Positions 698-36,345 of a stretch of DNA of 37,472 nucleotides are shown piece after piece; the first letter of the stretch is position 1; every line of letters begins with the position of its first letter. A program made the translations under genes and the position numbers. The stretch lies in IMG/VR virus record IMGVR_UViG_2561511241_000010, one strand, 5' to 3'. The notes beneath the pieces were generated by a model, which searched no databases, was not told the origin of the DNA, and saw only the letters and a program-made list of their open reading frames with translations. Origin of the DNA: a virus. Taxonomy: Duplodnaviria > Heunggongvirae > Uroviricota > Caudoviricetes.

Positions 698-1060
698 GGG
701 GCTGATTCTGGATTCGACGGGATTTGCGAAACCCAAGGTGCATGCCGAGGGGCGGTTGGCCTCGTAAAAAGCCGCAAAAAATAGTCGCAAACGACGAAAA
801 CTACGCTTTAGCAGCTTAATAACCTGCTTAGAGCCCTCTCTCCCTAGCCTCCGCTCTTAGGACGGGGATCAAGAGAGGTCAAACCCAAAAGAGATCGCGT
901 GGAAGCCCTGCCTGGGGTTGAAGCGTTAAAACTTAATCAGGCTAGTTTGTTAGTGGCGTGTCCGTCCGCAGCTGGCAAGCGAATGTAAAGACTGACTAAG
1001 CATGTAGTACCGAGGATGTAGGAATTTCGGACGCGGGTTCAACTCCCGCCAGCTCCACCA
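698..1060 (+). ncRNA. ssrA: tmRNA (transfer-messenger RNA)
   Basis: Starts GGGGCTGATTCTGGATTCGACGGG and ends with tRNA-like GGTTCAACTCCCGCCAGCTCCACCA; internal tag frame 787..819 reads ANDENYALAA then TAA; 363 nt. Confidence 0.95.
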
Positions 1061-1218: not shown

Positions 1219-1272
1219 GTAACTAAGGGTAACAAAAAACCCTCCCCCTTTCGCGTCTCGCTCGCCTTGACA

Positions 1273-1312
1273 CTGTTTATTTTTACAGTAAAAATACTGT
1301 ATACAAACACAG
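1273..1312 (+). promoter_or_regulatory. Two tandem LexA (SOS) boxes in the dinI-like promoter
   Basis: CTGT-N8-ACAG twice: CTGTttatttttACAG (1273..1288) and CTGTatacaaacACAG (1297..1312); TTGACA at 1267..1272 lies just upstream. Confidence 0.7.
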
Positions 1313-1331
1313 TGGTTTTCCGGAGGCTTTT

Positions 1332-1598
1332 ATGTTCGTTGAACTGGTTTATGACAAACGCAATGTAGAGGGGCTCGAAGGGGCCAGAGAAATTATTCTG
1401 GCCGAGCTGACGAAGCGGGTGCACCAGATTTTCCCTGACGCCGAAGTGAAGGTGAAGCCGATGCAAGCGAACGGCTTGAATAGCGATGCCAGCAAAAGTG
1501 ATCGTGAAAAGCTGAACCGCATGCTGGAGGAAATGTTTGATGAATCCGACATGTGGCTTGTGTCTGAGTTTCCGACAGTTCGCCAGGTGGGTATGTGA
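1332..1598 (+). CDS. dinI: DinI-family DNA-damage-inducible protein
   Basis: 88-aa translation has DinI-like character (acidic C-terminus ending DMWLVSEFP); GGAGG ribosome-binding site at 1322..1326; LexA boxes upstream. Confidence 0.75.
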   Translation: MFVELVYDKRNVEGLEGAREIILAELTKRVHQIFPDAEVKVKPMQANGLNSDASKSDREKLNRMLEEMFDESDMWLVSEFPTVRQVGM

Positions 1599-1640: not shown

Positions 1641-2909
1641 TTACGAACCAGATTCATTCTCCGCAGCTTCCAAAGCTTCTTCCTGTCGTTGATTCCATAC
1701 ACTGTTTTCAGGCATGTCGAGTCGCACATCGATCCAGCTATTGGCAGGAACATCTATAGGAGCCCCTTTCGTTTTAACAATTTCTCCTTCTTCGCTAAGT
1801 ATGTATTTGCGCTTAAAAAGCCGAATCGTCAGCCCACCGCTTTCTGTTTGCTCAGCTTCAACTACACCCAGTTCTCCCATTCCACCTGGGTCCATTGGCG
1901 GCAGCAGCTGCCAGCCTTCTGATGCCAGGCCTGCCGAACCAGTCAGCAAATAGATACCTACATCTAGCCGGGAAATTTTGATTCCCTCTGCCTCAGCATT
2001 AGCCGTACCGCATCCGCACCAGATAAAATCATTTTCATCAATATCTGTGCGCTGATTCTCGTTCTGAGATTTCACGATTCTGGCCACCGGCGAAGCTGCT
2101 TTCAGCGTGCCATCGGAGGCTTTAGTGGTATTTTCAGAAGTGTAAACAACTGAGCCTGGCTTCACAGACAGCATTGTTGAGAATGCATCGGTGCCATTAT
2201 TTCTTCCTGCAATCTGGTAAGAGACGGTACCACCAATCCCTGCGACACCTGCCCTGAAACGAGGAGTTCCGTTAACCATCACCGTATGAGCCCATACACT
2301 ACCAACAGTTGAAAGTCCTTCAACGGTGAAAGCGTAAGGGTTACCAGCGATACCGGCGATATTCAGGGCATTCGTTAACGTTCCTCCGCCAGTACCAAGA
2401 GCACCAAGTGCTGTTAGCGCTTCATTAGCTGTTTTCGCTCCCGTACCGCCCTGAGCGATGCTGAGAGCAGTTGTTAATCCGCTCAGGCTGGTAATGTCGC
2501 TGTTTGCCCCTTTCTTCGCCAGCGATTTCTGAGCCGGTACCGTGACGGCCACGCCGTTAATCGTGATAGTGACATCTGTAGTACCGTTCATCACATCAGC
2601 GAAGCCACTCATGTAACGCTGGTACATCGTGAACGTTTCAGCAATATCCTGTGCCAGGCCGTCAACGCTCAGGCTGTCGCTCAGAAGAATGGCGTATTTG
2701 GTTCCAGCTGGGATAGCAGGGCTTGCCGCTGGCGTAACGGTGAGACTGGTTGCGCTAACGATGGCGGTAATCTGAAAAACCTGCGCTGGACTGGTCATTG
2801 CAATAACTGTGCAGCCGTTGCGGATCAGAGAACCTGCGGCGGTAAAATTAGTACCTGTGCCGGTGATATTGTTACCACTAATAGCAATGGTGCCTGTTGT
2901 GTAAATCAT
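1641..2909 (-). CDS. Tail fibre protein
   Basis: 422 aa, Gly/Thr/Ala-rich repetitive N-terminal region typical of phage fibre shafts; last gene of the tail module; GAGGTAG ribosome-binding site. Confidence 0.6.
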   Translation of the reverse strand: MIYTTGTIAISGNNITGTGTNFTAAGSLIRNGCTVIAMTSPAQVFQITAIVSATSLTVTPAASPAIPAGTKYAILLSDSLSVDGLAQDIAETFTMYQRYMSGFADVMNGTTDVTITINGVAVTVPAQKSLAKKGANSDITSLSGLTTALSIAQGGTGAKTANEALTALGALGTGGGTLTNALNIAGIAGNPYAFTVEGLSTVGSVWAHTVMVNGTPRFRAGVAGIGGTVSYQIAGRNNGTDAFSTMLSVKPGSVVYTSENTTKASDGTLKAASPVARIVKSQNENQRTDIDENDFIWCGCGTANAEAEGIKISRLDVGIYLLTGSAGLASEGWQLLPPMDPGGMGELGVVEAEQTESGGLTIRLFKRKYILSEEGEIVKTKGAPIDVPANSWIDVRLDMPENSVWNQRQEEALEAAENESGS

Positions 2910-3035: not shown

Positions 3036-3398
3036 ATGAAACTTTTATTCGCTGCAGCGTTTTTGCTTGTGGCTGGATGTACGAACAAACACACAGATAA
3101 CGCATTCCAGATGGATTACCCGGTTGATGCCTCTCGTTTATCGCTCGGTGGTGATATTCACGTAAATATCGACTGTGCCACCAAAGAGGTGGAAGTTATT
3201 TCAGACAGTAGCAACGGAATATTCAGCCGCCATATAAAAAAAAGGTTAAGTAATATTTGCTACAATAAACCGGATAAGCTGGATGTCGTTTATCGCTTTA
3301 ATTCAGCAAAGGGCGTGAAACAAGATATGATTGCAACTCATTACCCACGAGTTCCTCCCGTGTCAAATCCCAACAAACTGAGAGATGGGGATTCTTAG
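3036..3398 (+). CDS. Lipoprotein moron, antisense to the tail operon
   Basis: N-terminus MKLLFAAAFLLVAGC is a signal peptide with lipobox; AGGAA ribosome-binding site; AT-rich upstream region; 3' end overlaps the convergent ORF 3363..4004. Confidence 0.6.
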   Translation: MKLLFAAAFLLVAGCTNKHTDNAFQMDYPVDASRLSLGGDIHVNIDCATKEVEVISDSSNGIFSRHIKKRLSNICYNKPDKLDVVYRFNSAKGVKQDMIATHYPRVPPVSNPNKLRDGDS

Positions 3399-4004: not shown

Positions 4005-4303
4005 TGAAAGTTATACACCTCCACATTGAGTGTGATCGCAGGACTGCCGGTTGAGGGCAAATAGTAAGCTGTAAAACCGCCATTATAGGCGCGGCAGTGG
4101 TATTCGTTGACAGTGACGCCAGTCGACACAATTGAGATGAATGAGCCATCCTGGGTTATCCCGACGAAGGAAACGTTTTTCGACGTTTCCCCCGCAGCGA
4201 ATGTTACTGAGGTGCTTCCGATATACCGGATGGCATAATCACTCAAATCAACCGCTATGCGCCCTGCACTGTCCCAGCATTGCAACCCCTGTGGCATTAC
4301 CAT
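4001..4303 (-). CDS. Hypothetical protein downstream of J
   Basis: 100-aa ORF overlapping the J stop (4297..4303) and the next ORF. Confidence 0.45.
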   Translation of the reverse strand: MVMPQGLQCWDSAGRIAVDLSDYAIRYIGSTSVTFAAGETSKNVSFVGITQDGSFISIVSTGVTVNEYHCRAYNGGFTAYYLPSTGSPAITLNVEVYNFQ

Positions 4304-7300
4304 AACCCCATTCTGACACGCAGTACGTTATTGCTGTCATAGATACGAATGAGAGTGCTGGTTATCAGCATCCTCCCGCCCCCGGCCACGCCGTTAATTT
4401 CGAACGTTCCACTCTTATCAAGCTTCCAGCCTGCAGAACCAGCCACATAGTTATTCGACTGGATATAGTTGCCGATTTTGGCATTGCTGATGGTCCCGTC
4501 ACCGATGACCGTATCCCTGATAATGGTTTGGCCATTCTGGATAACGAACGGGAGCGTAACATTACCGCCTGCCTGGGTCATGACAGCAAAACGGTCAGCC
4601 AGGAACAGAACCTGTGACTGCATGCCCTCTGGCGTATTCTGAACACCAATGCCCATTCCGGCTGCGTACTGGTTGCCATTAGAATCAACAGCTACCTTGA
4701 TGCTGTACATTGCATTCAGGTTGTTATTGATGTCGGCTGATACCTGGCTGTTCTGGACAATATCTGCAGACTGGCCGTTAACCGTGACCTTAAGCGAGTT
4801 AATTTGCGTCGCAGACGCCTGGGTGAAGTCAGCAAGTGTCTTCGACAAGTCAGTGACATTCGCTATGTTTCCACCGGCACTGGAATCTAGGGTACGCAAC
4901 GACTCAGCGACAGCCTTACTGGCTTCGGCCATGACATTGTCGACTCGCTCAATACCGGCTTTATTATCACCATACTGAACGCTCAGAAGGTTGCGCTGGT
5001 TAACCTGTGCGAGCGTGCTGGTTATCAGCGCGATGGCATTGTTTTGAATACCACCGTTGGCCTTATCCGTTCTTGCTGCCAACTCCTCCAGGCGGGACGC
5101 CACTGACGAAGTCGTGTCTGTGACAACCTGCCGCAGCGTGGTGATATCAGCAGTGTTTTGTGAGCTGGCTTGTTCAGCTGCGTCTGCCTTACCTGATGCA
5201 GCATCAGCTTTACTCGAAGCCGAATCAGCTTTATCAGAAATGACCTGAGTACTCGCAGTGAGCTGATCAACAGCAGTTGCCCTTGCCTGAGCTTCATCTG
5301 ACAGAGCCTGCCTTACCTCGGTAATTCCCGCTTCGTTCTGCGCTGTTTTTGCCTCAAGACGGATAACATCCGTTACGCGTGCCTCCGTCTCAGTAGCGAT
5401 AACCTCCCGGAGCTGTTCGAAAGTCGCAGAGTTAGCGCCCTGTTGGGCTGTCTGGCGCACGACAACATCGGCAATAGCCAGCGCGTTGCCGATGATTGCT
5501 TCTGCTGTCTGCTTATTCGAACCTACGGCGGCAGCCAGCCCATCGGCGTTCTCCTTAATTGCTTCAGAAAACTCGGCCAGTTTCTCGCTACTGTCTACAG
5601 CACTTTCAATCAGATCCTTAAATACCTCGGAATCTTTAATCTCCTCCAGGATCGCATCGGTGATATCGGATACATCGATGCTGGCCTGACCGCGCACAAA
5701 GTCTGTATACCCTGATTCGTTGCCGCTGCGGTCCACCAGCTGCGCGCGATACCAGAAAATCTGCCCAGCCTTAAGGCCCATCTGCTGATATTTGCGCTGC
5801 GGGTAAGGCACATCGGCCAGCAGTATCGCATCGTCTTCGGTACCGGTCAGGCTGTACTGAATTTCCGTCTTCAGCGTGTCGTCGGTATTCGCCGGGAATC
5901 CCCAGTTCAGCTCGATACCAAATACAACGTTTTCAGAAGCGATGAAGCCAACCGGCTTCGGTGGGCTGCCCACTTTACCCGTCAGCGTTTTCTCTTCTGA
6001 AGAGCCCCATCCGGAAGAAATTTCTGCGGCATTGATTGCGCGCACGCGCACCAGGTAGCGCCCTGCATAAATCCCCTGGACGTCGAATGATGTGGTGGAG
6101 CTGCGCGGCACGTTAACCCAGTTCCCGTCGTTGCGGCGCCATTGCGCTTCATAGGCGATAGCGTTCTGCGCCTGGTCCCAGCTCACGCGCATGGTCTCAA
6201 CGCTGATATTTTGCTGCACCACGGAAAACGAGCTGATCACGATGTTCGAAGGCGGCGACTGGTTACCCGGCGGGATTACACTCACCGGCCGCTGGTCGAT
6301 GATGGCTCCGGTATCGATGCGGGCATATTTATCCGGGTCGTGCCATGCGCCAGTAATCGAGAAAGTGCCATCATCCTTTTCGGAAACGCTGACAACACGA
6401 TACTGCTGCGCATAGAGCTCGTCAGATTCAACCACCCAAACAGCTTCGGCCTGTGGCGTCTCACTGTATGCCGTGGTGACTGTGACTGATTCCCCGTTTA
6501 CGGCCTGAATGGTCCTGCTCTGCGACACTCCGGATGGTAAGTTGAGAATAAGGCGATCACCTGCTGCTGCATCTGCCACGCGGTCAAGTTTGATAACGCG
6601 ACCGTTAACGGCGCTGATGCGGCCGCCCATAACCTTTCCGGAAAGCAGCTCGTCTGCCACGGCGATGATGTAGCCCGGCTGCGGAATGTTGCCGTCCAGC
6701 CCGACATCAAACGAAACAACACGATCCTTGTTGTTGGTGAGAATACCCCAGCGTCCCTTTCGGTTAGCTTCTGACTGCCTGGTGCAGCCGATGGCTGTCA
6801 TTTCCAGCTGATTGAAGCCGTACCGCGCCACCAGCGCCTGCTCAAATACCGGCTCCATCGCGTCGGCATAAGCGTTCCCCGGATCTGACCATGAAACCAG
6901 TGCTGTGGTGTAGCGGCTTTTCGTGGTGCTGCTCGAATAGGTGAAGCGACCGCCAACAACGTTAGCGCGCGTGTAGCTGTAATCAACATCGCGCGGCATG
7001 TCAGCCAGGGCCACAATCTGATCCCCGCCCCAGTAGGTCATGCCACGGAAGATAGCGGCAAAATCACGCAGGACTGTGTAGGCGTCGTTCCGGTCCTGAA
7101 TGTACACGTTGCAGGTATAACGTGGTTCGGTACCGTTGCCCCCTTTGCCGTCTGGTACCATCTGATCACAATACTGGGCAACCTGATAAAGCGTCCATTT
7201 ATCAATATTCGCAGCGGTCAAACGGTGCCCGAGGCCGAACCGGTCAGAAACAACCAGATCGTAAAAAATCCACGCAGGGTTATCCGTCCATGCCCACTTA

Positions 7301-8121
7301 AACGCACCGGTCCATGTACCGCTATAAGTGCGGGTTTCAGGGTCGTAGGTATCTGGAACGCGGATAACGCGGCCGCGGGGCTCGCAGGAGATCTGAGGGA
7401 TAGAGCCGTTAAACTGGCTGGAATCGAATTCGATGTAGAGTAACGCTGTGTTTGGATATCGTAACTTGGCGTCAATCACCTCAGTGAAGCTCTGCAGCGT
7501 CATCGTGTCGCCGATCTTCGCGCTGTTGGCATCAGAGGTAATCTTAGGCAGACGTATTGTCCAGGTGCTGCCAGCCTGCGGTAAATCAATGCGGTGGCTG
7601 CGCTCATAACCAGACGTCGTTTTGCCGGTCACGCTGGTATTGAGTACCGTCTGCCATGTGCCGCCGTCCGTCTGCAGGTCAATCGCATAATTGACCGAGT
7701 AACCCACCAGATCACCGTCGTCCTCCTGTTTGAAAAGCGAGGGCCATTTCAGACGCAGGCGAACTGCTGAAAGCTGCGTATTGGTAAAGGTGCGCGTCCA
7801 TGCTGTAGCGCTTGATACCTCAGTTCCTACGCTGATTTCGTTTTCGGTACCGGGAATACCCTGAATATATTTTTGGGCCTGCGTTCCCGCGCGAAACTCC
7901 CACGTTACGCCGCTGAAGTTTTGGGAGCCGTCAGCATTCTCCAGGGCTGTTCCGTCCAAATAGATATCTTTGCCGGTTAGCTGCCCTGCAAACTCCCCTT
8001 CGCCAAGCGCAACGAGGATTTTTGCCTTCGCTACAGATTGCAGATCATCAGGCTGTTCGGTAGGGGTTCGTGAACTGGAGCTGCCGCCCTTGCGGCCCTT
8101 TAACACTTTATCTGTAGCCAT
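4297..8121 (-). CDS. J: Host specificity / central tail fibre protein J
   Basis: 1274 aa; N-terminal region resembles lambda gpJ; follows the I-K-L-M order. Confidence 0.9.
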   Translation of the reverse strand: MATDKVLKGRKGGSSSSRTPTEQPDDLQSVAKAKILVALGEGEFAGQLTGKDIYLDGTALENADGSQNFSGVTWEFRAGTQAQKYIQGIPGTENEISVGTEVSSATAWTRTFTNTQLSAVRLRLKWPSLFKQEDDGDLVGYSVNYAIDLQTDGGTWQTVLNTSVTGKTTSGYERSHRIDLPQAGSTWTIRLPKITSDANSAKIGDTMTLQSFTEVIDAKLRYPNTALLYIEFDSSQFNGSIPQISCEPRGRVIRVPDTYDPETRTYSGTWTGAFKWAWTDNPAWIFYDLVVSDRFGLGHRLTAANIDKWTLYQVAQYCDQMVPDGKGGNGTEPRYTCNVYIQDRNDAYTVLRDFAAIFRGMTYWGGDQIVALADMPRDVDYSYTRANVVGGRFTYSSSTTKSRYTTALVSWSDPGNAYADAMEPVFEQALVARYGFNQLEMTAIGCTRQSEANRKGRWGILTNNKDRVVSFDVGLDGNIPQPGYIIAVADELLSGKVMGGRISAVNGRVIKLDRVADAAAGDRLILNLPSGVSQSRTIQAVNGESVTVTTAYSETPQAEAVWVVESDELYAQQYRVVSVSEKDDGTFSITGAWHDPDKYARIDTGAIIDQRPVSVIPPGNQSPPSNIVISSFSVVQQNISVETMRVSWDQAQNAIAYEAQWRRNDGNWVNVPRSSTTSFDVQGIYAGRYLVRVRAINAAEISSGWGSSEEKTLTGKVGSPPKPVGFIASENVVFGIELNWGFPANTDDTLKTEIQYSLTGTEDDAILLADVPYPQRKYQQMGLKAGQIFWYRAQLVDRSGNESGYTDFVRGQASIDVSDITDAILEEIKDSEVFKDLIESAVDSSEKLAEFSEAIKENADGLAAAVGSNKQTAEAIIGNALAIADVVVRQTAQQGANSATFEQLREVIATETEARVTDVIRLEAKTAQNEAGITEVRQALSDEAQARATAVDQLTASTQVISDKADSASSKADAASGKADAAEQASSQNTADITTLRQVVTDTTSSVASRLEELAARTDKANGGIQNNAIALITSTLAQVNQRNLLSVQYGDNKAGIERVDNVMAEASKAVAESLRTLDSSAGGNIANVTDLSKTLADFTQASATQINSLKVTVNGQSADIVQNSQVSADINNNLNAMYSIKVAVDSNGNQYAAGMGIGVQNTPEGMQSQVLFLADRFAVMTQAGGNVTLPFVIQNGQTIIRDTVIGDGTISNAKIGNYIQSNNYVAGSAGWKLDKSGTFEINGVAGGGRMLITSTLIRIYDSNNVLRVRMGLW

Positions 8122-17072: not shown

Positions 17073-18230
17073 TCATGAGCCAGAAGAGAAAGTGCCCTTG
17101 ATGATTGCCGTCGGGCGATAGTGCGCCAGCGCAAGGCGTTCTTCACACAGGATGGTCAGCATGTTTTTCACGAAGTTGTCGCGATCTTCGCGGCTGACTT
17201 CTACGGTGGCATCCATGCGATCCCACACCTGTGAGGCCATATCAAAACCGCCCACCGTAAAGGTGCCGGCGGCTTGCGCCTTAGTCGGAACCACTGGCAG
17301 GCCCCACATGATGTTGCTGGTAAACGCCTGAGGACCACCGAAGATATAGCGGCCTTCGTTGTCTTTCAGCAGCGCAATGTTGTGCCAGTCGCGCGGGTTC
17401 AGGACGATACCGGAAGCGCTAAACTCAGACTCTGTCACCTGGTAAATAGCGTGAGCGATGATGTCAGCACGGGTGTCACCAGTGGCATTCAGCGAGGTGT
17501 CGTAGGCGGTTGCCACTTTGTTCAGACCTTCCAGGTTATCCCCGGTACCGTCGCCGTTCAGCAGTTGGCCCTCTTCCTTCAGCGCCAGGCCATACATCAG
17601 ACGGCCGTTGACGTATGACTGCAGCATTGGCGCATCGTCCATCACCTGACGTGATGCCTGCACCCAGTGCGCGATAGTCTTCACGTTCGCGGTCTGCTTG
17701 CTGAATGTGATATCCGATTCTGGCTTAAGCGCTTTCTCAGCCACCACATCGGCGTTATTGGTAAACACCTCTTCACGCACATATTCCAGAGCGTTACTGG
17801 AAATGCGGCCCTGAGCCAGCAGGTCACGGATGGTCAGACGGCGCAGGCCCGGCATGATAATTCCCGGGATCTGCATAGGCTGGATCAGTGCGCCAGCAGA
17901 GTCAGCGTCACTGCCGAGCGACTTATTGAACGTCTTCGCGTCGAAGGTGCCCTGTTTACCGTCCCATGACTTAATGAGCTCTTCAGCAGCTCGTTCAGAG
18001 AAGGATTTCTTCTCACCCGGATTTTCAGCGCCGGATGCCAGTTTCTGTTCAAGATCGAAGAGGCGGGTACCGGATTTGGTCAGTTCTTCCTGTACCTTCA
18101 CCAGGTCGGCCTGCAGCTGTTTGGATACCTTACCCGTGCTTTCGATTTCTGCTTTCTGTGCATCGAAAAGCTGGGACATTTTCTGCTGGGATTCTTCAAT
18201 AGCTTTTTGAATGAGAGCGAGTTCAGACAT
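17073..18230 (-). CDS. Major capsid protein, HK97 fold
   Basis: 385 aa with N-terminal coiled-coil delta domain followed by a capsid domain; follows the protease gene. Confidence 0.9.
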   Translation of the reverse strand: MSELALIQKAIEESQQKMSQLFDAQKAEIESTGKVSKQLQADLVKVQEELTKSGTRLFDLEQKLASGAENPGEKKSFSERAAEELIKSWDGKQGTFDAKTFNKSLGSDADSAGALIQPMQIPGIIMPGLRRLTIRDLLAQGRISSNALEYVREEVFTNNADVVAEKALKPESDITFSKQTANVKTIAHWVQASRQVMDDAPMLQSYVNGRLMYGLALKEEGQLLNGDGTGDNLEGLNKVATAYDTSLNATGDTRADIIAHAIYQVTESEFSASGIVLNPRDWHNIALLKDNEGRYIFGGPQAFTSNIMWGLPVVPTKAQAAGTFTVGGFDMASQVWDRMDATVEVSREDRDNFVKNMLTILCEERLALAHYRPTAIIKGTFSSGS

Positions 18231-18927: not shown

Positions 18928-20205
18928 TTAAGCCCCGTTATTACGGGGCTCTTTGTTGGTTCCTAAATCGGTGATCGGCACGTATTGCGACTGGCGCATA
19001 GCCACATCGCCACCCGGCAATGGCGGGAGGTTGTCCGTTCGTCGCATCTCGTTGATGGTGCGTAGCCCTGCCTCTCCCATTGCCTTCATAAAGGCTGCGC
19101 GGGATGCCGAATCGCCCCTCAGCAGGCCGTCGAGATTGTGCTCAGCATGAATGCGGCCAACATCCTTAGCGGGAATAAGCCACCGCTGAATGCTGTTTTC
19201 CCACCGGGAGATATAGGGCTGCAGGGTGTACTGCAGGAAGCCGAGATTCTGCTGCTCAATGCCCGATCCCCAGCTCGTTGATTTCTCGACGTCGCCGACA
19301 AGGTGAGGCGGTACGCCAAAGAATCGCGCCAGTTCACTTACCTGAAATTTTCGGGACGCCATCATTTCGGCATCCTGCGGCGTTACGCCAATTGCCGATG
19401 TGGAAAAGCCCGCTTCCAGAATCCAGAGGCGTTTTTTAACCGGACCGCCGGCGATCTCTTTGAAGTTCTCTTCGACCTGCGAGCGCTGCTGTTCAGTCAG
19501 CACTTTTTCGCCGGTTGAGAGGATTTGCGGAGACTTGGCGCCGTTGGCAAAGAAATCTCGCTGCTGGTCCTCCATCGCAACTGCCACACCTGCCGATTTA
19601 CAGGCAAAAGCAATTGGTGACAGGCCGACCAGCCCGGTGAATCCGAAACCTTTAAGGTGAAAAATCTCTCTCTGCGAAAAGTCGGCGTATTCGCTGTCGC
19701 GTTGATAGCGATAAACCACTTTTTTCCCGACGAGTTTCACATCCATATTGGCAGACTGAAGCGGGAGAAGGCTGATCACGTCACCCGCGCTGTTGCGGTC
19801 CACCAGTGCATACGCGTTACCGTAGAAACAGAGCTGCATCGTCATGGCCTCCCTGAACTCCTGGGCGGTCATGTACTGATTCGGTGAGTAGCGCAGCAGT
19901 CGCGCCAGCGGATTGCTCAAACCCACTTTTTTGCGGTTGTCATTCTGGTCGGTTTCGAAGACATCAAGCGGTAAGCATGCCGTGAGCGTTGAAATCAGGC
20001 TCACGCAGCGCCAAACCGTCGAAATTTGCAGTATCCGTTCATCGTTAATGGATGAATCGCCCAGGTGTCCATAGGCCGAAACAGGCCCCGTCTGTGAGCC
20101 CTGATTTGGGGTGACTAAACGCCCGCCGACAAACCAGGACTGCAGCCTTGCCCACCAGCCGTTATTGGTTCGCAGGTCAATCGTGTATTTAGGTTCTTCC
20201 ATCAC
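18928..20205 (-). CDS. Portal protein
   Basis: 425 aa between large terminase and protease; 4-nt overlap with the terminase gene. Confidence 0.9.
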   Translation of the reverse strand: MMEEPKYTIDLRTNNGWWARLQSWFVGGRLVTPNQGSQTGPVSAYGHLGDSSINDERILQISTVWRCVSLISTLTACLPLDVFETDQNDNRKKVGLSNPLARLLRYSPNQYMTAQEFREAMTMQLCFYGNAYALVDRNSAGDVISLLPLQSANMDVKLVGKKVVYRYQRDSEYADFSQREIFHLKGFGFTGLVGLSPIAFACKSAGVAVAMEDQQRDFFANGAKSPQILSTGEKVLTEQQRSQVEENFKEIAGGPVKKRLWILEAGFSTSAIGVTPQDAEMMASRKFQVSELARFFGVPPHLVGDVEKSTSWGSGIEQQNLGFLQYTLQPYISRWENSIQRWLIPAKDVGRIHAEHNLDGLLRGDSASRAAFMKAMGEAGLRTINEMRRTDNLPPLPGGDVAMRQSQYVPITDLGTNKEPRNNGA

Positions 20206-21716
20206 ATGCTCAGCGGTCGGAAAATGAAGTCGTCGAAGTCACCACCCTGTTCGGTAACTTCCCCATTAGCAGCACCAACGGACATTGTCATTGCGACCAT
20301 GCCATCAATACGGCCCGTTGCTTTGGATTTATCCAGCTTACGGTTGCCAGCAGCATCTTTTACGATCACCGCGTTCCAGGCACACATGGTTAACACCGGG
20401 TGCATGCCATGCCTCACCCGCCCGTTAAGCATCAGTGACTCAAGGGTGTCTACAGCCGGGCCCATATCCTTAAAGCCCTGGCCGAACTCGACCAGAGGAA
20501 GGCTCAGGCCGATGTCGTCAGCCTCTTTCCTGAACTGGTCAATGCGCCATCGGTCGAAGGCCATCGAAGTGAGGTCAAAATCACCGATGATTTCGGCGAT
20601 GTCGGCGACCACGAATGAGTAATCGACGGACGCACCGGGCGTGGTACGCAAAAGCCCCTCCCTTGCCCATACGTCATAGGGCGCGCGGTCTGTTTTGGAC
20701 CGTGCTTCCAATGTCTTTTGTGGGGTCCAGAAGAAGGGAAAGATATCCCAGACACCATCATCAGCCTCACCAGCGATAACCAGCGCCGTTAAGTCGTTCC
20801 TGGCCGACAGATCCAGCCCGGCATACCATTTCCTCGGTGTGTTAACCGGTACTCCACCGCACAACTCCCACACGCTGCGGGAGATAAACGGCGATACGGT
20901 CGACACTCTCTGATTAAGGTTGAGATTTCGGAAGGTGTTCTCAAAGCTTGGCATTCGGCCTGCCATTTCAGCCTGGCGCGCCATGTCTTTTTCAGATCTG
21001 AACGTTCCCAGCGCCGGGTTCGCAGCAAGCCAGGATTCTCGCTTACTGATATCAGCGTCTTTTGGCGCTTCGTAAACGTGGCAGACAATGTGCGGGTCTT
21101 TCGATTTGACCGCATCATCAATCCAGATGCTCAACAGGTCGGCATCGTTCGCCGCCTGGGTGCTGATAACGATAAGAAGCGGATTCTCATGCGCACCCTG
21201 GGCTGTAGTAATCGCGTCGATAAAATCATCCTGCGGCCCCCTTACCTGTCCGGTTTCGTCCAGAATCGCCAGAATCGGGGAAAGGCCGTGTGTGGTTTTA
21301 CCCTCAGCAGATAGCGCCTTGTATTCGACATTACACGGCAACCCTATTAGCTTTTTGCCACTGGGAATTATATGCACTAACACCTGCAGGTCCGGGTTCA
21401 GGTTCACCATCTTCACCGCGAGGTTGAAAACGATGGATGCCTGCTCGCGACTAAGCGCGCCGCTTACGATCTGGGTATTCTGTACCGCCTCTGGCCCCAC
21501 CAGATGCGCCAGCAGGATACCGGCTATCAGCCCTGTCTTTCCGTTTTTGCGCGCGATGCTCAGTATCGCTTTATCGGTTCCGACTGGATTGTCGTAAACC
21601 GCCAGGATGAATTCTTTCTGGAAGGGATCAAGCCTCATAGGCTTACCCAGAAGCTTGCCTTCCGGCACGATGCAATAGCGCTCAATGAACGCTATTACAC
21701 GCTCACCTCGCGTCAT
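20202..21716 (-). CDS. Terminase large subunit
   Basis: 504 aa with N-terminal ATPase region and C-terminal nuclease-like region; position. Confidence 0.9.
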   Translation of the reverse strand: MTRGERVIAFIERYCIVPEGKLLGKPMRLDPFQKEFILAVYDNPVGTDKAILSIARKNGKTGLIAGILLAHLVGPEAVQNTQIVSGALSREQASIVFNLAVKMVNLNPDLQVLVHIIPSGKKLIGLPCNVEYKALSAEGKTTHGLSPILAILDETGQVRGPQDDFIDAITTAQGAHENPLLIVISTQAANDADLLSIWIDDAVKSKDPHIVCHVYEAPKDADISKRESWLAANPALGTFRSEKDMARQAEMAGRMPSFENTFRNLNLNQRVSTVSPFISRSVWELCGGVPVNTPRKWYAGLDLSARNDLTALVIAGEADDGVWDIFPFFWTPQKTLEARSKTDRAPYDVWAREGLLRTTPGASVDYSFVVADIAEIIGDFDLTSMAFDRWRIDQFRKEADDIGLSLPLVEFGQGFKDMGPAVDTLESLMLNGRVRHGMHPVLTMCAWNAVIVKDAAGNRKLDKSKATGRIDGMVAMTMSVGAANGEVTEQGGDFDDFIFRPLSM

Positions 21717-22392: not shown

Positions 22393-22596
22393 CTATGCCG
22401 AATGTTTGTCTACCTGTTCGAGTTTCCGATCGCCTTTCCCGTGCCCGGAGACAACATGCCATGAGACGGTCACTGTCGGCACCTCCTGCCCTACAGCGTG
22501 CGAGAACTGAATGGATGTCACGTCCTTCATCTCCACGCCATCAATCACCAGGCGAACGAATTTTCCATCGCGGTATTCAATGCTGAGGTCTTTCAT
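22393..22596 (-). CDS. Hypothetical small protein
   Basis: 67-aa ORF whose start overlaps the HNH stop by one nucleotide. Confidence 0.35.
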   Translation of the reverse strand: MKDLSIEYRDGKFVRLVIDGVEMKDVTSIQFSHAVGQEVPTVTVSWHVVSGHGKGDRKLEQVDKHSA

Positions 22597-22949
22597 TACG
22601 TGCTCCAGTGAGACGCAGGATCAAGCGGGTAGCCATTGGCATCACAGCCTATTACAGCGCCGCTCTTCTCCATTCTCTGTTTCGTTGAGTCGTGATGTGC
22701 TTTGCACAGTGGCTGCCAGTTCTCTTTACTCCAGAACAGGAGCTGTGCTTTCGATATAGCCAGCGGGTTACCTGACTTAAGCGCATCTTTGAGTTTGTGG
22801 GGTTCGATATGGTCAACCACCGTTGCTGGGGTTATGCGCCCCTGCTGCTCGCACATCACACATAGTGGGTGCTGCTGCAGGAAACGCAGACGGGCCTTAT
22901 CCCATCGGCTGCCATATACGCGGGGCTCTTTGTTCATGCCAGTCTCCAT
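22596..22949 (-). CDS. HNH endonuclease
   Basis: 117 aa with CxxC...H...CxxHH arrangement (CVMCEQQG...VDHIEPH...CKAHH). Confidence 0.85.
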   Translation of the reverse strand: METGMNKEPRVYGSRWDKARLRFLQQHPLCVMCEQQGRITPATVVDHIEPHKLKDALKSGNPLAISKAQLLFWSKENWQPLCKAHHDSTKQRMEKSGAVIGCDANGYPLDPASHWST

Positions 22950-23524
22950 GCGCGCCGGCGTTCCGTCCTCGGCTCGTTGTCAGGGTGACGCTCAACCGTC
23001 GGGAGGTCAGCGTGATCCACCAGCGAGTAACACGGATAAATCACCCGGCCACCGAATGCCTCACCGACGGCGTAATCAGCTGCCAGCGTTTTATTCCATG
23101 CGTTAAGCATGCGCGCCAGCCTGCCCTGAGGAGGGCTGTAACATACGCCGTGAATCAGTTTGCTTAATACGATGTGGTCACCACAGACGCGATCCGCATC
23201 CACCAGCATTCCGGCAATTTCTTTCTGATACTGCGGCGGTCGGCCGGTACCGAGATAAAAGCTCAGCATGTCGTCAGGGAAGCGCACCAGCCATTCAGTT
23301 ACCTTATCGGTGAAGCCCTGTACAGGAAGCGCGTCGTCTTCCAACACCACTACCCGGCATGTTTGCTCTGCTGCCCACTCAAGCGCACGCCGATGATTCC
23401 AGTTCGCGCCGCGGTTACCGTCATCAATAAGCAGATGAGCATCCAGCAGCGCGGTAAGTCGTTGCGCATGACCTATGCGAGAGTGATGGCCAACCACAAC
23501 AAACTTCACTTGTGTTTCCACCAT
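22934..23524 (-). CDS. Putative GT-A-fold glycosyltransferase-like protein
   Basis: 196 aa; pattern NHRRALEWAA...VVVLEDDALPV resembles the acidic-motif core of GT-A (family 25-like) transferases; overlap-coupled to both neighbours. Confidence 0.4.
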   Translation of the reverse strand: MVETQVKFVVVGHHSRIGHAQRLTALLDAHLLIDDGNRGANWNHRRALEWAAEQTCRVVVLEDDALPVQGFTDKVTEWLVRFPDDMLSFYLGTGRPPQYQKEIAGMLVDADRVCGDHIVLSKLIHGVCYSPPQGRLARMLNAWNKTLAADYAVGEAFGGRVIYPCYSLVDHADLPTVERHPDNEPRTERRRAWRLA

Positions 23525-24963
23525 GCGGCCTCCTTACCGATACCATCAGTTTTGAAAACGGTATGTACCAGGGGGCCGGTGACCAGCCTGTCAGCGAATG
23601 ACTGCGCGACAATACCGAACGCCAGCATGTCACCCACCGCGGCGCCAGCCTGTTCTTTCTTCCAGAAACGATAACTCTCTATCCGGTAGTAAAGACGGAT
23701 GATGCCGTGAGCAAACGCCATGACATCAGCGCGGGTACCGCCCAGCAGACCAGCGTTAAGCATCACATCGCCGCGGTGCGCTTCAATGAATTCTTGATAG
23801 ATACGCTCAGGATGATTCTGCTTTGCCCAGGTGTCGGCGTATGTCTTCGGTTCAGAACCGACGTAAACATTCCCGGGCTGCATTTCTTCCCACGGCGCGC
23901 GAAGCATTTCGACATCGGTACCATCTGTACACCACACGAACCGGTATTCAGGGTGATCGCGTAGGTGCTGCCAGATATGCAGCCAGCGCCGGAAGTAGAC
24001 ATTCATCTTCACGTCAGGAACGCGGTAAAGCTCAACGTCTGCCGGTGCCGTCTGTAGTTCATCCACCAGCGCGATGCGGCCACAATGTCGAAGCGAGGCC
24101 GCCCACCCGCTCAACATGTCAGGTGAGGCTACCATTCTCGTACCGCGCTGGGGGTCGGGCTGGCTGGTCAGTAGCGTAGTGATAACCACGTCGCGCTGCT
24201 GGCGGTATTCAACGTAACCAGTAAACCCGGCGTCACGACGTTCGTTGTGGATCTTCACGTTACGTTCCACCAGCGCCTGTCGGTCGGGACGCGGTACCGA
24301 ACGCTCAACGGCTTCATGCTCATCGAGAGAGTGGATCAGCTTTTCTGAACCGAAGACATCAGCGTAAGCCCACGTCGTGAGGCCAGCGTTATGAATCCGC
24401 ATGGCGAGGTCGCTGTGTTCGTACATGCCGCGACCGTAAACCGTATCGAAACCGCCAACCTTCTCGACAGCGCTACGGTGGTAATACAGCATCACGCCGC
24501 GCTGCCCGGTGTAAGCGATGTGCTTATCATCCCGGTACAGGACTGCCATATCCTTCAGCTTATTCGTCCCTGCCAGATCGAGGAACTGGTAAGCCAGGTG
24601 CGGTTCGGGTGATTCGACGTATGGCAGGTGCCAGTTATCAACGATGGGCCAGGCGTCATCGTCCCAAAGGAATAGATGCTCACATCCGGCGTCCATCAGC
24701 GCGGTTAAACTGGCGTTCTTAGAAGCAACAATGCCGAGTGATGTTTCATGGCGAAGCAGCTGCACGCCATCAGGCACTACTGCGGCAGGTTTAGAGCCAT
24801 CGTCGATAACCACCACCAGCGCACCGATGGGAAGATGTTTGGTGTGCTGCTCAATGGCACGCTTTAAAACGTCTGGCCGGTTATGGGTAGTTATGGCAAT
24901 GCCAATCCGTGACGCTGAAGCGCAAGCGGGTACAAACGGGACACCATCAATAGTGACCTGCAT
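23506..24963 (-). CDS. Two-domain protein with N-terminal family 2 glycosyltransferase domain
   Basis: 485 aa; N-terminus IGIAITTHNRPDVLKRAIEQ...VVVIDDGS...LWDDDAWP carries GT2 signature motifs; about 230-aa C-terminal domain of unknown function; no long hydrophobic segments; GTGGAGAA ribosome-binding site. Confidence 0.65.
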   Translation of the reverse strand: MQVTIDGVPFVPACASASRIGIAITTHNRPDVLKRAIEQHTKHLPIGALVVVIDDGSKPAAVVPDGVQLLRHETSLGIVASKNASLTALMDAGCEHLFLWDDDAWPIVDNWHLPYVESPEPHLAYQFLDLAGTNKLKDMAVLYRDDKHIAYTGQRGVMLYYHRSAVEKVGGFDTVYGRGMYEHSDLAMRIHNAGLTTWAYADVFGSEKLIHSLDEHEAVERSVPRPDRQALVERNVKIHNERRDAGFTGYVEYRQQRDVVITTLLTSQPDPQRGTRMVASPDMLSGWAASLRHCGRIALVDELQTAPADVELYRVPDVKMNVYFRRWLHIWQHLRDHPEYRFVWCTDGTDVEMLRAPWEEMQPGNVYVGSEPKTYADTWAKQNHPERIYQEFIEAHRGDVMLNAGLLGGTRADVMAFAHGIIRLYYRIESYRFWKKEQAGAAVGDMLAFGIVAQSFADRLVTGPLVHTVFKTDGIGKEAAWWKHK

Positions 24964-27041: not shown

Positions 27042-27322
27042 TAGTGCCTCAGATGATCAACCAGGCGCGCCACGTTGCCTTTAACGGCCACCAGCACGGA
27101 AAGAAAGATGATATTGGCCCCGATGGAGGACCAGGAAGAATGAGGATAAATCCCGCACAGGTACGCAAGCGGTACCGCGCTGTAAGTGACGGTAATCAGC
27201 CATGCCAACCGGGAAACCCACGGGCGATGGCGGGAGTCACCCCGGCGATAAAACATCAGAGTAACCACCACTCCGGCACAGATCAGAGCGTTTAATGTTG
27301 CAGTTGGGTCATTTAGTACCAC
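27041..27322 (-). CDS. Holin/antiholin-like membrane protein
   Basis: 93 aa with about three hydrophobic segments; overlap-coupled between holin and endolysin. Confidence 0.5.
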   Translation of the reverse strand: MVLNDPTATLNALICAGVVVTLMFYRRGDSRHRPWVSRLAWLITVTYSAVPLAYLCGIYPHSSWSSIGANIIFLSVLVAVKGNVARLVDHLRH

Positions 27323-27695
27323 CTGAACCTCCCCGGCGCGTTATCAGCGCCACCAGCGAGCCAACATCCTGGTTATTCAGGAACGTCAGGATTTTGACGG
27401 CTAATGCAGAAATGATTACGGCACCGATGGCGTCCAGAGGTTTATCACTGTAACCGGTCCAGGCAGATAACTTTGAGCCTACCAACCCGGAGCATAAGAT
27501 CCCGGCGATATACGACACTATGAAATATGCCAGCCGGCGGGTTGCACTCAGATCAGCTGCTGTGGCGATGTAGAATACGGCACCTGCAAATGCGCCAAAT
27601 ACCACACCATAATCGGTGCCTGTAAGCAGGCCATAGATACTGGCACCCGTCAGAGCGCCACCGGCTAAGCCAGTGCCGGAAATCGGATCGGACAT
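27309..27695 (-). CDS. Putative holin
   Basis: 128 aa, Gly/Ala-rich hydrophobic segments; first gene of the lysis block. Confidence 0.55.
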   Translation of the reverse strand: MSDPISGTGLAGGALTGASIYGLLTGTDYGVVFGAFAGAVFYIATAADLSATRRLAYFIVSYIAGILCSGLVGSKLSAWTGYSDKPLDAIGAVIISALAVKILTFLNNQDVGSLVALITRRGGSGGTK

Positions 27696-27803: not shown

Positions 27804-27959
27804 TTATTTACTGGATTTAATCAGAGGCCAGAGCAGCGCAATCACTCCAGCCACCAGCACACCATCAGCAAGGATGGACATCATTTTGCTGGTGAAGTCG
27901 ATGGCAACCACCAGGAACAACAAAACCCCGGCGGCCGCCCAGCGCAGTTTTCCGATCAC
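27804..27959 (-). CDS. Possible small membrane peptide (GTG start)
   Basis: 51 codons from a GTG overlapping the TerB-like stop (GTGA); two hydrophobic stretches; not in the supplied ORF table. Confidence 0.2.
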   Translation of the reverse strand: MIGKLRWAAAGVLLFLVVAIDFTSKMMSILADGVLVAGVIALLWPLIKSSK

Positions 27960-28381
27960 AGGTACTGATCCAGTGGAAGCTGCAGCGCCTGAGCGATTTT
28001 CTTCAGCTGTTTCTCTTCTTCTTCACCGATCCCGTCGTTGTCAGCAACATCGAGACACAGGCACAGAACGTCAACAGCATCATTTGTACCGGCAACGTCA
28101 GCCAGCTCGCGCAGCGCCTGAGCATTAGCGGAGCGCGGCGAGGCTTCGTAGCGCGCGCGAATGTTGCTGCTCATCTGCGCAATTTCTCCGGCGAATGGTG
28201 CGAAGGCAGGCAGTGCCGAAATGGTTTTTTCCAGCGTGGCGATTTCTTTCGCATCGCAGGTACCATCGGCATACGCAATGGAGTAAGCGCCCCATACAGT
28301 CGCCTCAACCGCATCGCGGTTTTCCATTTTCTTAACTTCAGTAACGGCTTTACGAGCTTTCTTTTTGAAGATACCGAACAT
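27956..28381 (-). CDS. TerB-like (tellurite-resistance TerB family) protein
   Basis: 141 aa; helical pattern with acidic C-terminus (DNDGIGEEEEKQLKKIAQAL) resembling TerB-domain proteins. Confidence 0.45.
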   Translation of the reverse strand: MFGIFKKKARKAVTEVKKMENRDAVEATVWGAYSIAYADGTCDAKEIATLEKTISALPAFAPFAGEIAQMSSNIRARYEASPRSANAQALRELADVAGTNDAVDVLCLCLDVADNDGIGEEEEKQLKKIAQALQLPLDQYL

Positions 28382-28636: not shown

Positions 28637-29437
28637 CTATTTGCTCCGATCATATAAATAAGTTGTCGCCTTCTCAAATTCCACTGCTGCGTGAAGCTCC
28701 CCCTGGCGCAGAGTGTCCACCAGCATTTCATAGAAGGGTTTCCAGTTGCGTGACCATGAGGACTGATGGAGGTCAGGGAGACGCTTCAGAATGGCGCGGT
28801 GTACCGTAGCCGAGGAGATAGCAGAGAAGCCATTACCAGAGCAACGTTCACACGTTTTGAAAACCGGTGCGCCGCGGTCTTTGGTCGCTTTGCGGTCCAA
28901 CACTTCGCCTTTACCGCCACACCTGCACCGGGCAAGGATCACTTTCTTTCCTCCGCATGTTCCGCAAACCCTATTCACCAGCTCATTTTTAATCTTCGGG
29001 GCCACAACTTCGGCACCGTCGGCGTCGAAAATACCAGGATGTTTAACCACATCCTCATTCCCGGAGATAAACCCGGTACCGCTGCAACTGTGACATGTCA
29101 CGCTGGTAGCCGCCGAACGGGAGTAATCAGCAAAGGCAAATTGTGCCAGCATCTGCATACACCATCCGAACTGCCCACCAGCTGCTTTGCGCACATTCTT
29201 CGGTGCGACATCCATCGCATATCGCGCCAGCGCCTGAACTGCGAGCTGTTCATCCGTTTTGCTGATTCCCGCTTTACCGAAGAACGCCGCCAGGCCGAAG
29301 CGCGCACGGCTGCTAGTGGTGCCAATTGCCGCCATTACATCTGTTCCTGTAAGGCGGTCCGGAGAGGTTCCTTTCACGTCGTCGCTGATGTGCATTCCTT
29401 GTGGACTAAAATGTTTGAGCGATGATTCCAGTTTCAT
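28637..29437 (-). CDS. Q-like late antitermination protein (zinc-finger)
   Basis: 266 aa with several CxxC pairs (CHSCSGTG, CGTCGG, CRCGG, CERCSG); located between replication genes and the lysis cassette, followed by a terminator. Confidence 0.5.
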   Translation of the reverse strand: MKLESSLKHFSPQGMHISDDVKGTSPDRLTGTDVMAAIGTTSSRARFGLAAFFGKAGISKTDEQLAVQALARYAMDVAPKNVRKAAGGQFGWCMQMLAQFAFADYSRSAATSVTCHSCSGTGFISGNEDVVKHPGIFDADGAEVVAPKIKNELVNRVCGTCGGKKVILARCRCGGKGEVLDRKATKDRGAPVFKTCERCSGNGFSAISSATVHRAILKRLPDLHQSSWSRNWKPFYEMLVDTLRQGELHAAVEFEKATTYLYDRSK

Positions 29438-33045: not shown

Positions 33046-33714
33046 ATGGCTATGAAACAGAGATGGCAGGACCTGGCCAAAACCAGGATGAAAGAAGTCG
33101 GCATGACTCAAGAACAGCTGGCAGAAGCGCTCGGCATAACGCAGGGCGGGCTAGGCCATTGGTTAAATGCCAGACGTGAACCGAACCTAGAGGTTATAGC
33201 GAAGATTTTTAACATATTGAAAATGCCCGGCTTCGTAGTAAACGCTGACGGCACGGTCAGCGACTCAAGAGCCGATCACAATGTAAGTTTTAATAGCATT
33301 AACGAATCCAAAGGAAGTTACCCTGTTATAAGCTGGGTTAGCGCTGGAGACTGGATGGAAGCAGTAGAACCTTATCACCGTAGAGCGATAGATCGCTGGT
33401 ATGACACCACCGTTGAATGTTCAGAGGATTCGTTCTGGTTAGACGTCAGAGGCGATTCCATGACATCACCAGCAGGGCTGAGCATACCGGAAGGGATGGT
33501 GATACTTGTCGATCCCCAAGTGGAAGCAATCAACGGAAAATTGGTTGTAGCGAAACTTGACGGTGACAATGAAGCTACATTCAAAAAGCTTGTTATCGAT
33601 GCCGGTCAAAGATTTCTAAAACCCCTCAACCCCCAATACCCAATAATCCCAATCAATGGCAACTGCCGTATTATAGGGGTTGTGGTCGACGCAAAAATCA
33701 CCAACCTTCCGTAA
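33046..33714 (+). CDS. cI: CI-like repressor (HTH plus S24 LexA-like peptidase domain)
   Basis: N-terminal helix-turn-helix (MTQEQLAEALGITQGGLGHW); C-terminal GDSM serine motif and downstream lysine, as in LexA/CI autocleavage domains. Confidence 0.9.
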   Translation: MAMKQRWQDLAKTRMKEVGMTQEQLAEALGITQGGLGHWLNARREPNLEVIAKIFNILKMPGFVVNADGTVSDSRADHNVSFNSINESKGSYPVISWVSAGDWMEAVEPYHRRAIDRWYDTTVECSEDSFWLDVRGDSMTSPAGLSIPEGMVILVDPQVEAINGKLVVAKLDGDNEATFKKLVIDAGQRFLKPLNPQYPIIPINGNCRIIGVVVDAKITNLP

Positions 33715-36146: not shown

Positions 36147-36345
36147 TTGCGTACCTCTTTCAACCTACTGCCGGGACGCCGGAGAAACGGTTGAAGCCGT
36201 TAACAAACGGATACAAAGGGGGTTATGGAAAGAGGGTGTCCATGTATTAAAAGTCGATGGCGTTAAAGAACGCTGGATAGACTTAACGGAGGTTTCAAAG
36301 TGGGCAAGAAAGAACAAGGATCATTATCTCTCCCAAGAGGAGTGA
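36136..36345 (+). CDS. xis: Excisionase
   Basis: Start at internal Met 36136 (GGGAGG ribosome-binding site); 69 aa; resembles lambda Xis in its winged-helix segment; overlaps the int start. Confidence 0.6.
   Translation: MSLDCVPLSTYCRDAGETVEAVNKRIQRGLWKEGVHVLKVDGVKERWIDLTEVSKWARKNKDHYLSQEE

Follow-up and report, generated by a model that had tools for sequence, protein, structure and literature searches.

A predicted SOS-inducible dinI-like moron, with LexA boxes on both sides of its -10 element, at the attL end of an Escherichia coli ETEC1749 lambdoid prophage

The DNA analyzed here, called the window throughout, is a stretch of 37,472 bases that matches the chromosome of E. coli ETEC1749 (NZ_CP122712.1), a porcine ETEC strain from pig faeces, at 100% identity. 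The window starts with smpB (1-483), followed by the tmRNA gene ssrA (698-1060), which was located with ARAGORN. When the window was aligned with the free phage LMessi, the two sequences were collinear from position 1026 onward, through the promoter of a dinI-like gene, with 88.5% identity over 1061-1697. Since collinearity begins at 1026, the attL core corresponds to the last 35 nt of ssrA (1026-1060, plus strand), which are duplicated in the phage attP, and phage DNA starts at 1061. The dinI-like gene, which a first-pass annotation had assigned to a prophage end, thus lies about 270 bp inside the phage DNA. It is followed by a convergent tail fibre gene (1641-2909, minus strand) and by further tail genes on the minus strand, including that of a J-like tip protein at 4297-8121. 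Beyond these we found genes for an HK97-type capsid protein (17073-18230), the large terminase (20202-21716), a holin (27309-27695), antiterminator Q (28637-29437), primase and helicase, a CI-type repressor with HTH and Peptidase S24 domains (33046-33714, plus strand; Pfam HTH_3 and Peptidase_S24) and an integrase that begins at 36300 and runs past the window end. The prophage is a lambdoid siphovirus, HK97/phi80-like, integrated in the 3' end of ssrA of E. coli ETEC1749.

The dinI-like gene occupies positions 1332 to 1598 on the plus strand, from an ATG at 1332 to a TGA stop that ends at 1598, and encodes 88 amino acids. The same ORF is carried in RefSeq as WP_000497435.1, labeled 'DinI family protein' by PGAP on the ETEC1749 chromosome. 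The product scored 78 bits on Pfam DinI (PF06183), for which the gathering score is 24.2 (E = 6.7e-22, positions 2 to 63 of the 63-position profile), and matched PHROG 189, 'RecA filament binding protein DinI' (E = 3e-21). A phmmer search of the PDB returned DinI only (1ghh and 7ywa, E = 7e-07), in an alignment that reaches the C-terminus. The 88-aa product belongs to the DinI family, and the DinI-like ORF proposed at this position from the letters alone is upheld by the Pfam, PHROG and PDB matches. The Pfam domain covers residues 16 to 76, and the alignment to E. coli DinI, at 35% identity, spans the whole length of the protein up to residue 79. A single-sequence AlphaFold2 model, of low confidence (pLDDT 65.5), gave the element order beta-alpha-beta-alpha, and Foldseek with this low-confidence model returned 7ywa_A and 1ghh as the top two PDB matches, both weak (E = 0.04-0.2, TM 0.45-0.52).

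Next, we compared the residues through which DinI meets RecA. By cryo-EM of RecA with DinI, eight DinI residues contact the RecA filament, namely L13, L21, W71, W77 and F78 together with E24, E69 and D76 (PMC9926225). In the alignment to E. coli DinI, E24, E69 and W77 are identical in the phage protein, L21, W71 and F78 are changed conservatively (to I, F and L, respectively), Met stands in place of D76, and either G14 or L15 could correspond to L13. Given the change at D76 and the ambiguity at L13, the phage protein may bind RecA with another affinity, or in another mode, than host DinI does. The phage protein also ends in FPTVRQVGM, nine residues beyond the C-terminus of DinI. A C-terminal tail is found in most close relatives, the variant FPTVRQVGL being present in 57 of 89 sequences, and in the alignment the nine-residue tail is missing from the phi80, HK225 and phiKO2 proteins. 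As a side observation, the phage DinI lineage is marked by its 35% identity to the host protein, by Met at D76 and, in most copies, by the tail FPTVRQVG[LM].

On the opposite strand, an ORF of 201 aa runs antisense across the locus (996-1601); the LMessi record lists it as a CDS in place of the dinI-like gene, and an analogue is annotated in phi80. Among the 89 sequences, the variable columns were distributed over the three codon positions of the plus frame as 27/15/73, indicating that the plus frame is the coding one and that the antisense ORF is spurious. We ruled out the antisense ORF as a coding gene, since the excess of variability would fall on its first codon position.

The promoter region of the dinI-like gene reads, in order, TTGACA, CTGTTTATTTTTACAG, TAAAAAT (1289-1295), A, CTGTATACAAACACAG, GGAGG and ATG. 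The -35 hexamer TTGACA, recognized by eye and by promoter scan, lies at 1267-1272 on the plus strand. It is followed directly by LexA box 1 (CTGTTTATTTTTACAG, 1273-1288), contained in the 20-mer CACTGTTTATTTTTACAGTA at 1271-1290. The -10 region lies at 1289-1295, either as TAAAAA (1289-1294) with a 16-nt spacer or as AAAAAT (1290-1295) with a 17-nt spacer. LexA box 2 (CTGTATACAAACACAG, 1297-1312) is contained in the 20-mer TACTGTATACAAACACAGTG at 1295-1314, and a Shine-Dalgarno GGAGG, read from the sequence at 1322-1326, is found 5 nt 5' of the ATG. Both boxes, like the -35 element, are on the plus strand and have the form CTGT-N8-ACAG, so the pair that had been noticed between TTGACA and GGAGG was recovered at exactly the same positions. 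The promoter scan preferred TTGACA/17/AAAAAT, with 10 of 12 matches; relatives carry TATAAA or TATATA at the -10 place, and this comparison favors TAAAAA and the 16-nt spacer. Box 1 constitutes the entire spacer between the -35 and -10 elements, and box 2 begins 2 nt after AAAAAT, or 3 nt after TAAAAA, and spans the expected transcription start. Judged from this placement, LexA bound to either box should exclude RNA polymerase.

To what extent such a pair could occur by chance was estimated by shuffling. CTGT-N8-ACAG occurs exactly twice in the window, both times at the dinI-like promoter; 0.30 occurrences are expected in the shuffled window, and 3 of 100 shuffles reached two anywhere. For the pair to lie 24 bp apart in a single intergenic region of 271 bp is much more improbable than the shuffle figure. 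Each 20-mer matches 16 of the 20 positions of the consensus TACTGTATATATATACAGTA, with a perfect CTGT-N8-ACAG. By heterology index, computed with an approximate matrix that was rebuilt from 21 E. coli operators, the box 2 20-mer scored about 3.8, the best value in the window, and that of box 1 about 5.1-5.2. Both lie among the scores of the real operators used for the matrix, and the next-best site in the window scored 12.4 on the same approximate scale. A search of the window for a further LexA-type site in the prophage, for example for cI or an antirepressor, found none, and the looser pattern CTG-N10-CAG gave 19 sites, 17 of them G+C-rich and lacking CTGT/ACAG. Two good operators point to a promoter that is tightly repressed and fires late. 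Center to center, the boxes are 24 bp apart, a distance that does not correspond to whole turns of the helix, and in one relative (L078) it is 27 bp; cooperative LexA binding is thus not implied.

To place this promoter in its family, homologous loci were gathered from 80 IMG/VR loci and eight phage records, which together with the window make 89 sequences, 79 of them with at least 100 nt upstream. At least one LexA-like box was present within 100 nt of the ATG at 72 of the 79 loci, which are mostly 93 to 98% identical Enterobacteriaceae prophage copies and are not independent samples. Within that distance, 57 loci have one strict box, 11 have two strict boxes, three have one relaxed box, one has two relaxed boxes and seven have none. 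As for the seven loci without a box, a rearrangement breakpoint falls inside the box in five, and an unrelated gene lies upstream in two. A tRNA or att site was considered as the cause of the five breakpoints within the box and was discarded, as a search of the vicinity turned up no tRNA. By sequence, the promoters sort into several families that cannot be aligned to each other, and each family keeps a box on the core promoter. This conservation of the operators across homologous loci with unrelated promoters makes LexA control of the dinI-like gene very likely.

When the promoters were set side by side, many proved to share a design that runs TTGACA, box 1 as the 16-nt spacer, TAnAnA, TA and box 2. 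TTGACA stands in the same register in phiKO2, phi80, Fraca and the relatives L095, L099, L108 and L078. The window, LMessi and IMG/VR loci with DinI-like proteins only 56-84% identical to that of the window carry the full pair of boxes; phi80, mEp237 and CharmingMan have box 1 only, and Fraca and AsXd-1 have box 2 only. Among the 11 two-box relatives, the CTGT and ACAG ends of the boxes do not change, and the interior and flanking positions vary. Within the sample, the promoter sequence of the window itself occurs only in loci that share its upstream flank, terminator included, and eight of the 11 two-box loci have an exact match to the ssrA 3' end 271-272 nt 5' of the ATG. We also scanned 2.9 million IMG/VR viral contigs for pairs of boxes in the 24-bp register and found 64 sites on 61 contigs, 40 of them with a DinI-like gene within 150 bp. 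The share of tandem sites beside such a gene indicates that the tandem arrangement is recurrent in the gene family; the design is not peculiar to the ETEC1749 prophage and is possibly ancestral.

The unit is bounded by hairpins. Upstream, the terminator scan detected an intrinsic terminator supplied by the phage (1181-1212, plus strand), whose 14-bp stem closes a 4-nt loop and is followed by a U-run. Its RNA folds at -19 kcal/mol (z = -5.4; none of 200 shuffles was as stable), it is kept in all 11 two-box loci, and it is predicted to end ssrA transcription and so insulate the dinI-like promoter. Downstream, only 42 nt, hairpin included, separate the stop codon from the convergent tail fibre gene. 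The hairpin between the two genes (1606-1632) has a 9-bp stem and folds at -16.2 kcal/mol on the plus strand (z = -5.4) and at -18.5 kcal/mol on the minus strand (z = -4.05); it is probably a bidirectional terminator. At the equivalent place, the phiKO2 record carries an annotated 'putative bidirectional' terminator. With a promoter of its own (1267-1295), a hairpin on each side and an orientation opposed to that of the tail genes, the dinI-like unit looks like a self-contained moron, an anatomy that follows from the terminator hairpins flanking the gene.

As proposed in the first-pass annotation, lambdoid phages commonly carry dinI homologues, and homologues were indeed found in phi80, phiKO2 and other phages. 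DinI-like genes are common in temperate phages, including phiKO2, 186, Gifsy-1, Gifsy-2 as well as Fels-2, and a passage in the same source reports the phiKO2 gene to be LexA-regulated (PMC7556043). The GenBank record marks promoters around phiKO2 gp22, as well as a lexA binding site and a bidirectional terminator. As in the window, the gp22 promoter consists of TTGACA, a 16-nt spacer, TATAAA, TA and CTGT-N8-ACAG followed by the ribosome-binding site, all in the same register, and the gene is convergent with tail genes, with the bidirectional terminator downstream. However, the gp22 protein shares only 56% identity with that of the window and has no 9-residue C-terminal tail, box 1 has a degenerate left half (TCAC for CTGT), and the control region is shared with gp23, a divergent umuD-like gene, in what is a linear-plasmid prophage.

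The proteins of phi80 dinL (PHI80_27) and its mEp237 counterpart are 95% identical to the window's over 79 aa. Like the window gene, dinL is placed between the att/int region and the tail fibre gene, and the LexA site predicted 5' of it in the GenBank annotation fills the -35/-10 spacer, that is, the position of box 1. Unlike the window, phi80 has a single box, with unrelated sequence at the position of box 2; its protein ends in VSE, without FPTVRQVGM, and its att lies near yciI/kch rather than in ssrA.

E. coli DinI itself (1GHH; 7YWA with the RecA filament) shares with the phage protein the Pfam family, an acidic C-terminal helix and residues E24, E69 and W77, and its gene is likewise LexA-repressed. 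It differs in sequence (35% identity), in having D76 where the phage protein has Met, and in lacking the nine extra C-terminal residues. The chromosomal dinI of E. coli has one LexA operator. For Salmonella dinI, two operators are listed, of which one is weak (PMC8072944).

The dinI homologues carried by Gifsy-1, by Gifsy-2 and by Gifsy-3, all Salmonella prophages, have a terminator-like palindrome and a LexA box upstream; the Gifsy-2 protein accumulates after mitomycin C, and nalidixic acid raises the Gifsy-1, -2 and -3 transcripts 23-, 14- and 4.6-fold, respectively (PMC3121763, PMC8072944). They resemble the window in being prophage-borne DinI-family genes behind a LexA box and a terminator-like palindrome. 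In contrast, each has one box, lies near replication genes and is first in an operon with an antirepressor gene (gfoA/gftA) and irsA, whereas the window gene is monocistronic and its prophage has a repressor of the CI/S24 type. Overall, SOS-controlled phage dinI homologues are already documented, and the ETEC1749 locus is a real but ordinary example. What is new here, modestly, is that a promoter with its -10 element sandwiched between two LexA boxes recurs across phage dinI-like genes.

Taken together, the sequence features make it highly probable that we are dealing with an SOS-inducible moron, self-contained and situated at the attL end of the prophage. In an undamaged ETEC1749 lysogen, we infer that host LexA dimers would sit on the two operators flanking the -10 element, where box 1, in the spacer, and box 2, at the start site, would jointly occlude RNA polymerase and keep the gene silent, and the upstream terminator would stop read-through from the heavily transcribed ssrA. 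After DNA damage, RecA filaments would form, LexA would cleave itself and the dinI-like promoter would fire, probably relatively late or in deep SOS only, given that there are two good operators. By homology, the 88-aa product would then occupy the groove of RecA-ssDNA filaments, and from there it would stabilize the filament and compete with UmuD, LexA and the prophage CI, with possible consequences for induction and mutagenesis.

For whose benefit the moron would act is a separate question. One tentative answer, which we hold possible but do not favor outright, is lysogenic conversion that serves the host: an extra DinI-type protein during SOS would improve survival of the lysogen under DNA damage, by stabilizing RecA filaments or by limiting UmuD processing and mutagenesis. 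Salmonella MsgA, named as a macrophage survival gene, would serve for comparison. Several phage records call close homologues of the window's protein 'virulence protein MsgA', which points in this direction, but the name is a label transferred by similarity. The moron anatomy, with its own promoter and terminators in the att-proximal arm, also fits a host-directed role. In HK140, mEp390 and phiKO2, the LexA site faces a divergent umuD/humD-like gene as well, which suggests that the locus is an SOS-mutagenesis module in those phages; the window, however, lacks the umuD-like partner. The Gifsy prophages, in which no induction phenotype was seen (PMC3121763), are consistent with this answer too.

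A second answer, which we regard as somewhat doubtful, is that the phage DinI-like protein mainly sets the induction threshold of its own prophage. Deep SOS would clear the operators, and the protein would compete with CI for the RecA groove; alternatively, DinI would be driven into an inhibitory range of concentration, and CI cleavage would be damped or delayed. The resident repressor suits such a role. It matches lambda repressor (3bdn) with E = 1.7e-38, its VSAGDW aligns with lambda VQAGMF so that Ala-Gly corresponds to the A111-G112 cleavage site, and its GDSM and FKKL motifs align with S149 and K192, the Ser/Lys dyad. By these motifs the prophage repressor is a cleavable protein of the lambda-CI type, presumed to be a RecA*-dependent induction switch, and since the window holds no other LexA-type site, cleavage of CI should be the route to induction. 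In the RecA filament groove, DinI and lambda CI engage common determinants, the L2 loop and a basic patch (PMC9926225). The two operators of low heterology index would fit late expression, which by its predicted timing would coincide with CI cleavage. Against this answer, deletion of the dinI homologues in Gifsy-1 and in Gifsy-3 left induction unaffected (PMC3121763). This null result transfers poorly to the ETEC1749 prophage, because the Gifsy prophages rely on antirepressors and their repressors are not cleaved (PMC3121763). Moreover, host DinI at moderate levels stabilizes RecA filaments rather than inhibiting them (PMC9926225), so the direction and size of any effect are unpredictable. The induction-threshold idea is mechanistically plausible and not novel, and a host-benefit role is at least as likely.

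A Tum/Gifsy-type module, in which a LexA-controlled antirepressor (the DinI-like protein itself or a partner of it) inactivates a phage repressor by binding, is very improbable. The precedent is coliphage 186 Tum, a LexA-controlled, phage-borne protein whose C-terminal half is DinI-like (PMC3121763). Tum, however, is a fusion protein of 146 aa in which the DinI-like half is joined to an antirepressor half, whereas the window encodes a bare DinI domain in a phage with a cleavable repressor; in the 88-aa product, DinI aligns up to residue 79 and leaves no room for an N-terminal half. The gene is also monocistronic, with just the 42-nt gap and its hairpin before the convergent tail fibre gene, and a resident S24-type, self-cleaving repressor needs no antirepressor. 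We rejected this module for want of an extra domain or a downstream ORF and in view of the cleavable CI. Least of all do we credit the idea that the boxes are chance or decayed sequence without a regulatory role, or that they serve the antisense ORF annotated in LMessi and phi80: although that ORF does cross the locus, the shuffle expectation against two motifs on one promoter, the retention of the boxes across unrelated promoter sequences and the codon-position pattern of the plus frame are comparative and statistical grounds on which this idea appears effectively refuted.

Beyond the reading as a self-contained, SOS-inducible moron, the phage DinI-like lineage may be functionally specialized, for example in selectively shielding its own or competitors' CI-type repressors from RecA*, with the two-operator promoter as a timing device for deep SOS; we consider this improbable at present. 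If it were true, prophage dinI-like genes would be a general, tunable brake on, or arbiter of, induction in polylysogens. Likewise, if promoter and protein together tune RecA-dependent cleavage of CI, this would help to account for differences in induction, spontaneous or antibiotic-triggered, between related prophages, and these bear on the release of toxin and phage in pathogenic E. coli.

The dinI-like gene (window 1332-1598, + strand) is overlapped by an antisense ORF of 201 aa (996-1601, - strand), which covers the ssrA 3' end and the dinI-like gene in its entirety. In the record of the free phage relative LMessi (L003 2963-3553), the annotated CDS is the antisense ORF and the dinI-like gene is left out, and the phi80 record (L001 2541-2855) contains an ORF labelled "antisense to PHI80_27". 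Across the 89 homologous sequences, we counted 27, 15 and 73 variable columns at codon positions 1, 2 and 3 of the + frame, which shows that the genuine coding frame is that of the dinI-like gene and not the antisense ORF. At its C-terminus, the encoded protein is extended by nine residues (FPTVRQVGM, 1569-1595), a tail common to most close relatives (FPTVRQVGL in 57 of the 89 sequences), whereas the phi80, HK225, phiKO2 and host DinI proteins are without it.

Paired CTGT-N8-ACAG boxes in the 24-bp register were found in just 61 of 2.9 million viral contigs (IMG/VR loci L091-L151), and a DinI-like gene adjoins 40 of the 64 tandem-box sites in these contigs. Those sites belong to at least two promoter families of differing sequence; the others include a four-fold tandem array (locus L113) and pairs without a DinI-like gene. 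In phages mEp390, HK140 and phiKO2 (L006 855-1500, L007 789-1502 and L090 740-1200, respectively), the dinI-like gene and a umuD/humD-like gene are transcribed divergently from either side of the LexA box, and these phages therefore possess a two-armed SOS module. Unlike them, the window has no umuD-like gene.

In five IMG/VR loci, homology is interrupted exactly within the LexA box, so that both the left half-site and the -35 element are missing. The breakpoint lies approximately 75 to 90 nt upstream of the dinI-like ATG in L010, L040, L063 and L076, the fifth locus being L044, and four of the five share a junction in which …GGGAAGACCCAT is followed directly by ATATACAGTAG…. No tRNA gene was found near these breakpoints; an IS end, an att junction and a recombination scar are candidate origins.

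Several other ORFs were also observed in the window. One at 3036-3398 (+ strand; 120 aa; PHROG 25729, unknown function; no Pfam match) has an N-terminus resembling that of a lipoprotein (MKLLFAAAFLLVAGC); it sits within the tail-fibre cluster on the opposite strand, and may be another moron, e.g., a surface or exclusion lipoprotein. Two neighbouring ORFs of 196 and 485 aa (22934-24963, - strand) match PHROG families labelled glucosyltransferase and glycosyltransferase (moron category), with no Pfam match for either; just downstream of them come the terminase genes and a gene for an HNH endonuclease (22596-22949). Between the antiterminator Q and holin genes lies a 141-aa ORF (27956-28381, - strand) matching PHROG 632 ("tellurite resistance"), with a weak Pfam TerB match.

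Finally, the phage attP (region 1026-1212) includes the final 35 nt of ssrA, which differ from LMessi by one mismatch, at position 1033. Alongside this attP copy of the ssrA end, the phage bears a strong terminator (1181-1212); therefore, in the lysogen, both the 3' end of the tmRNA gene and its terminator are supplied by the phage.
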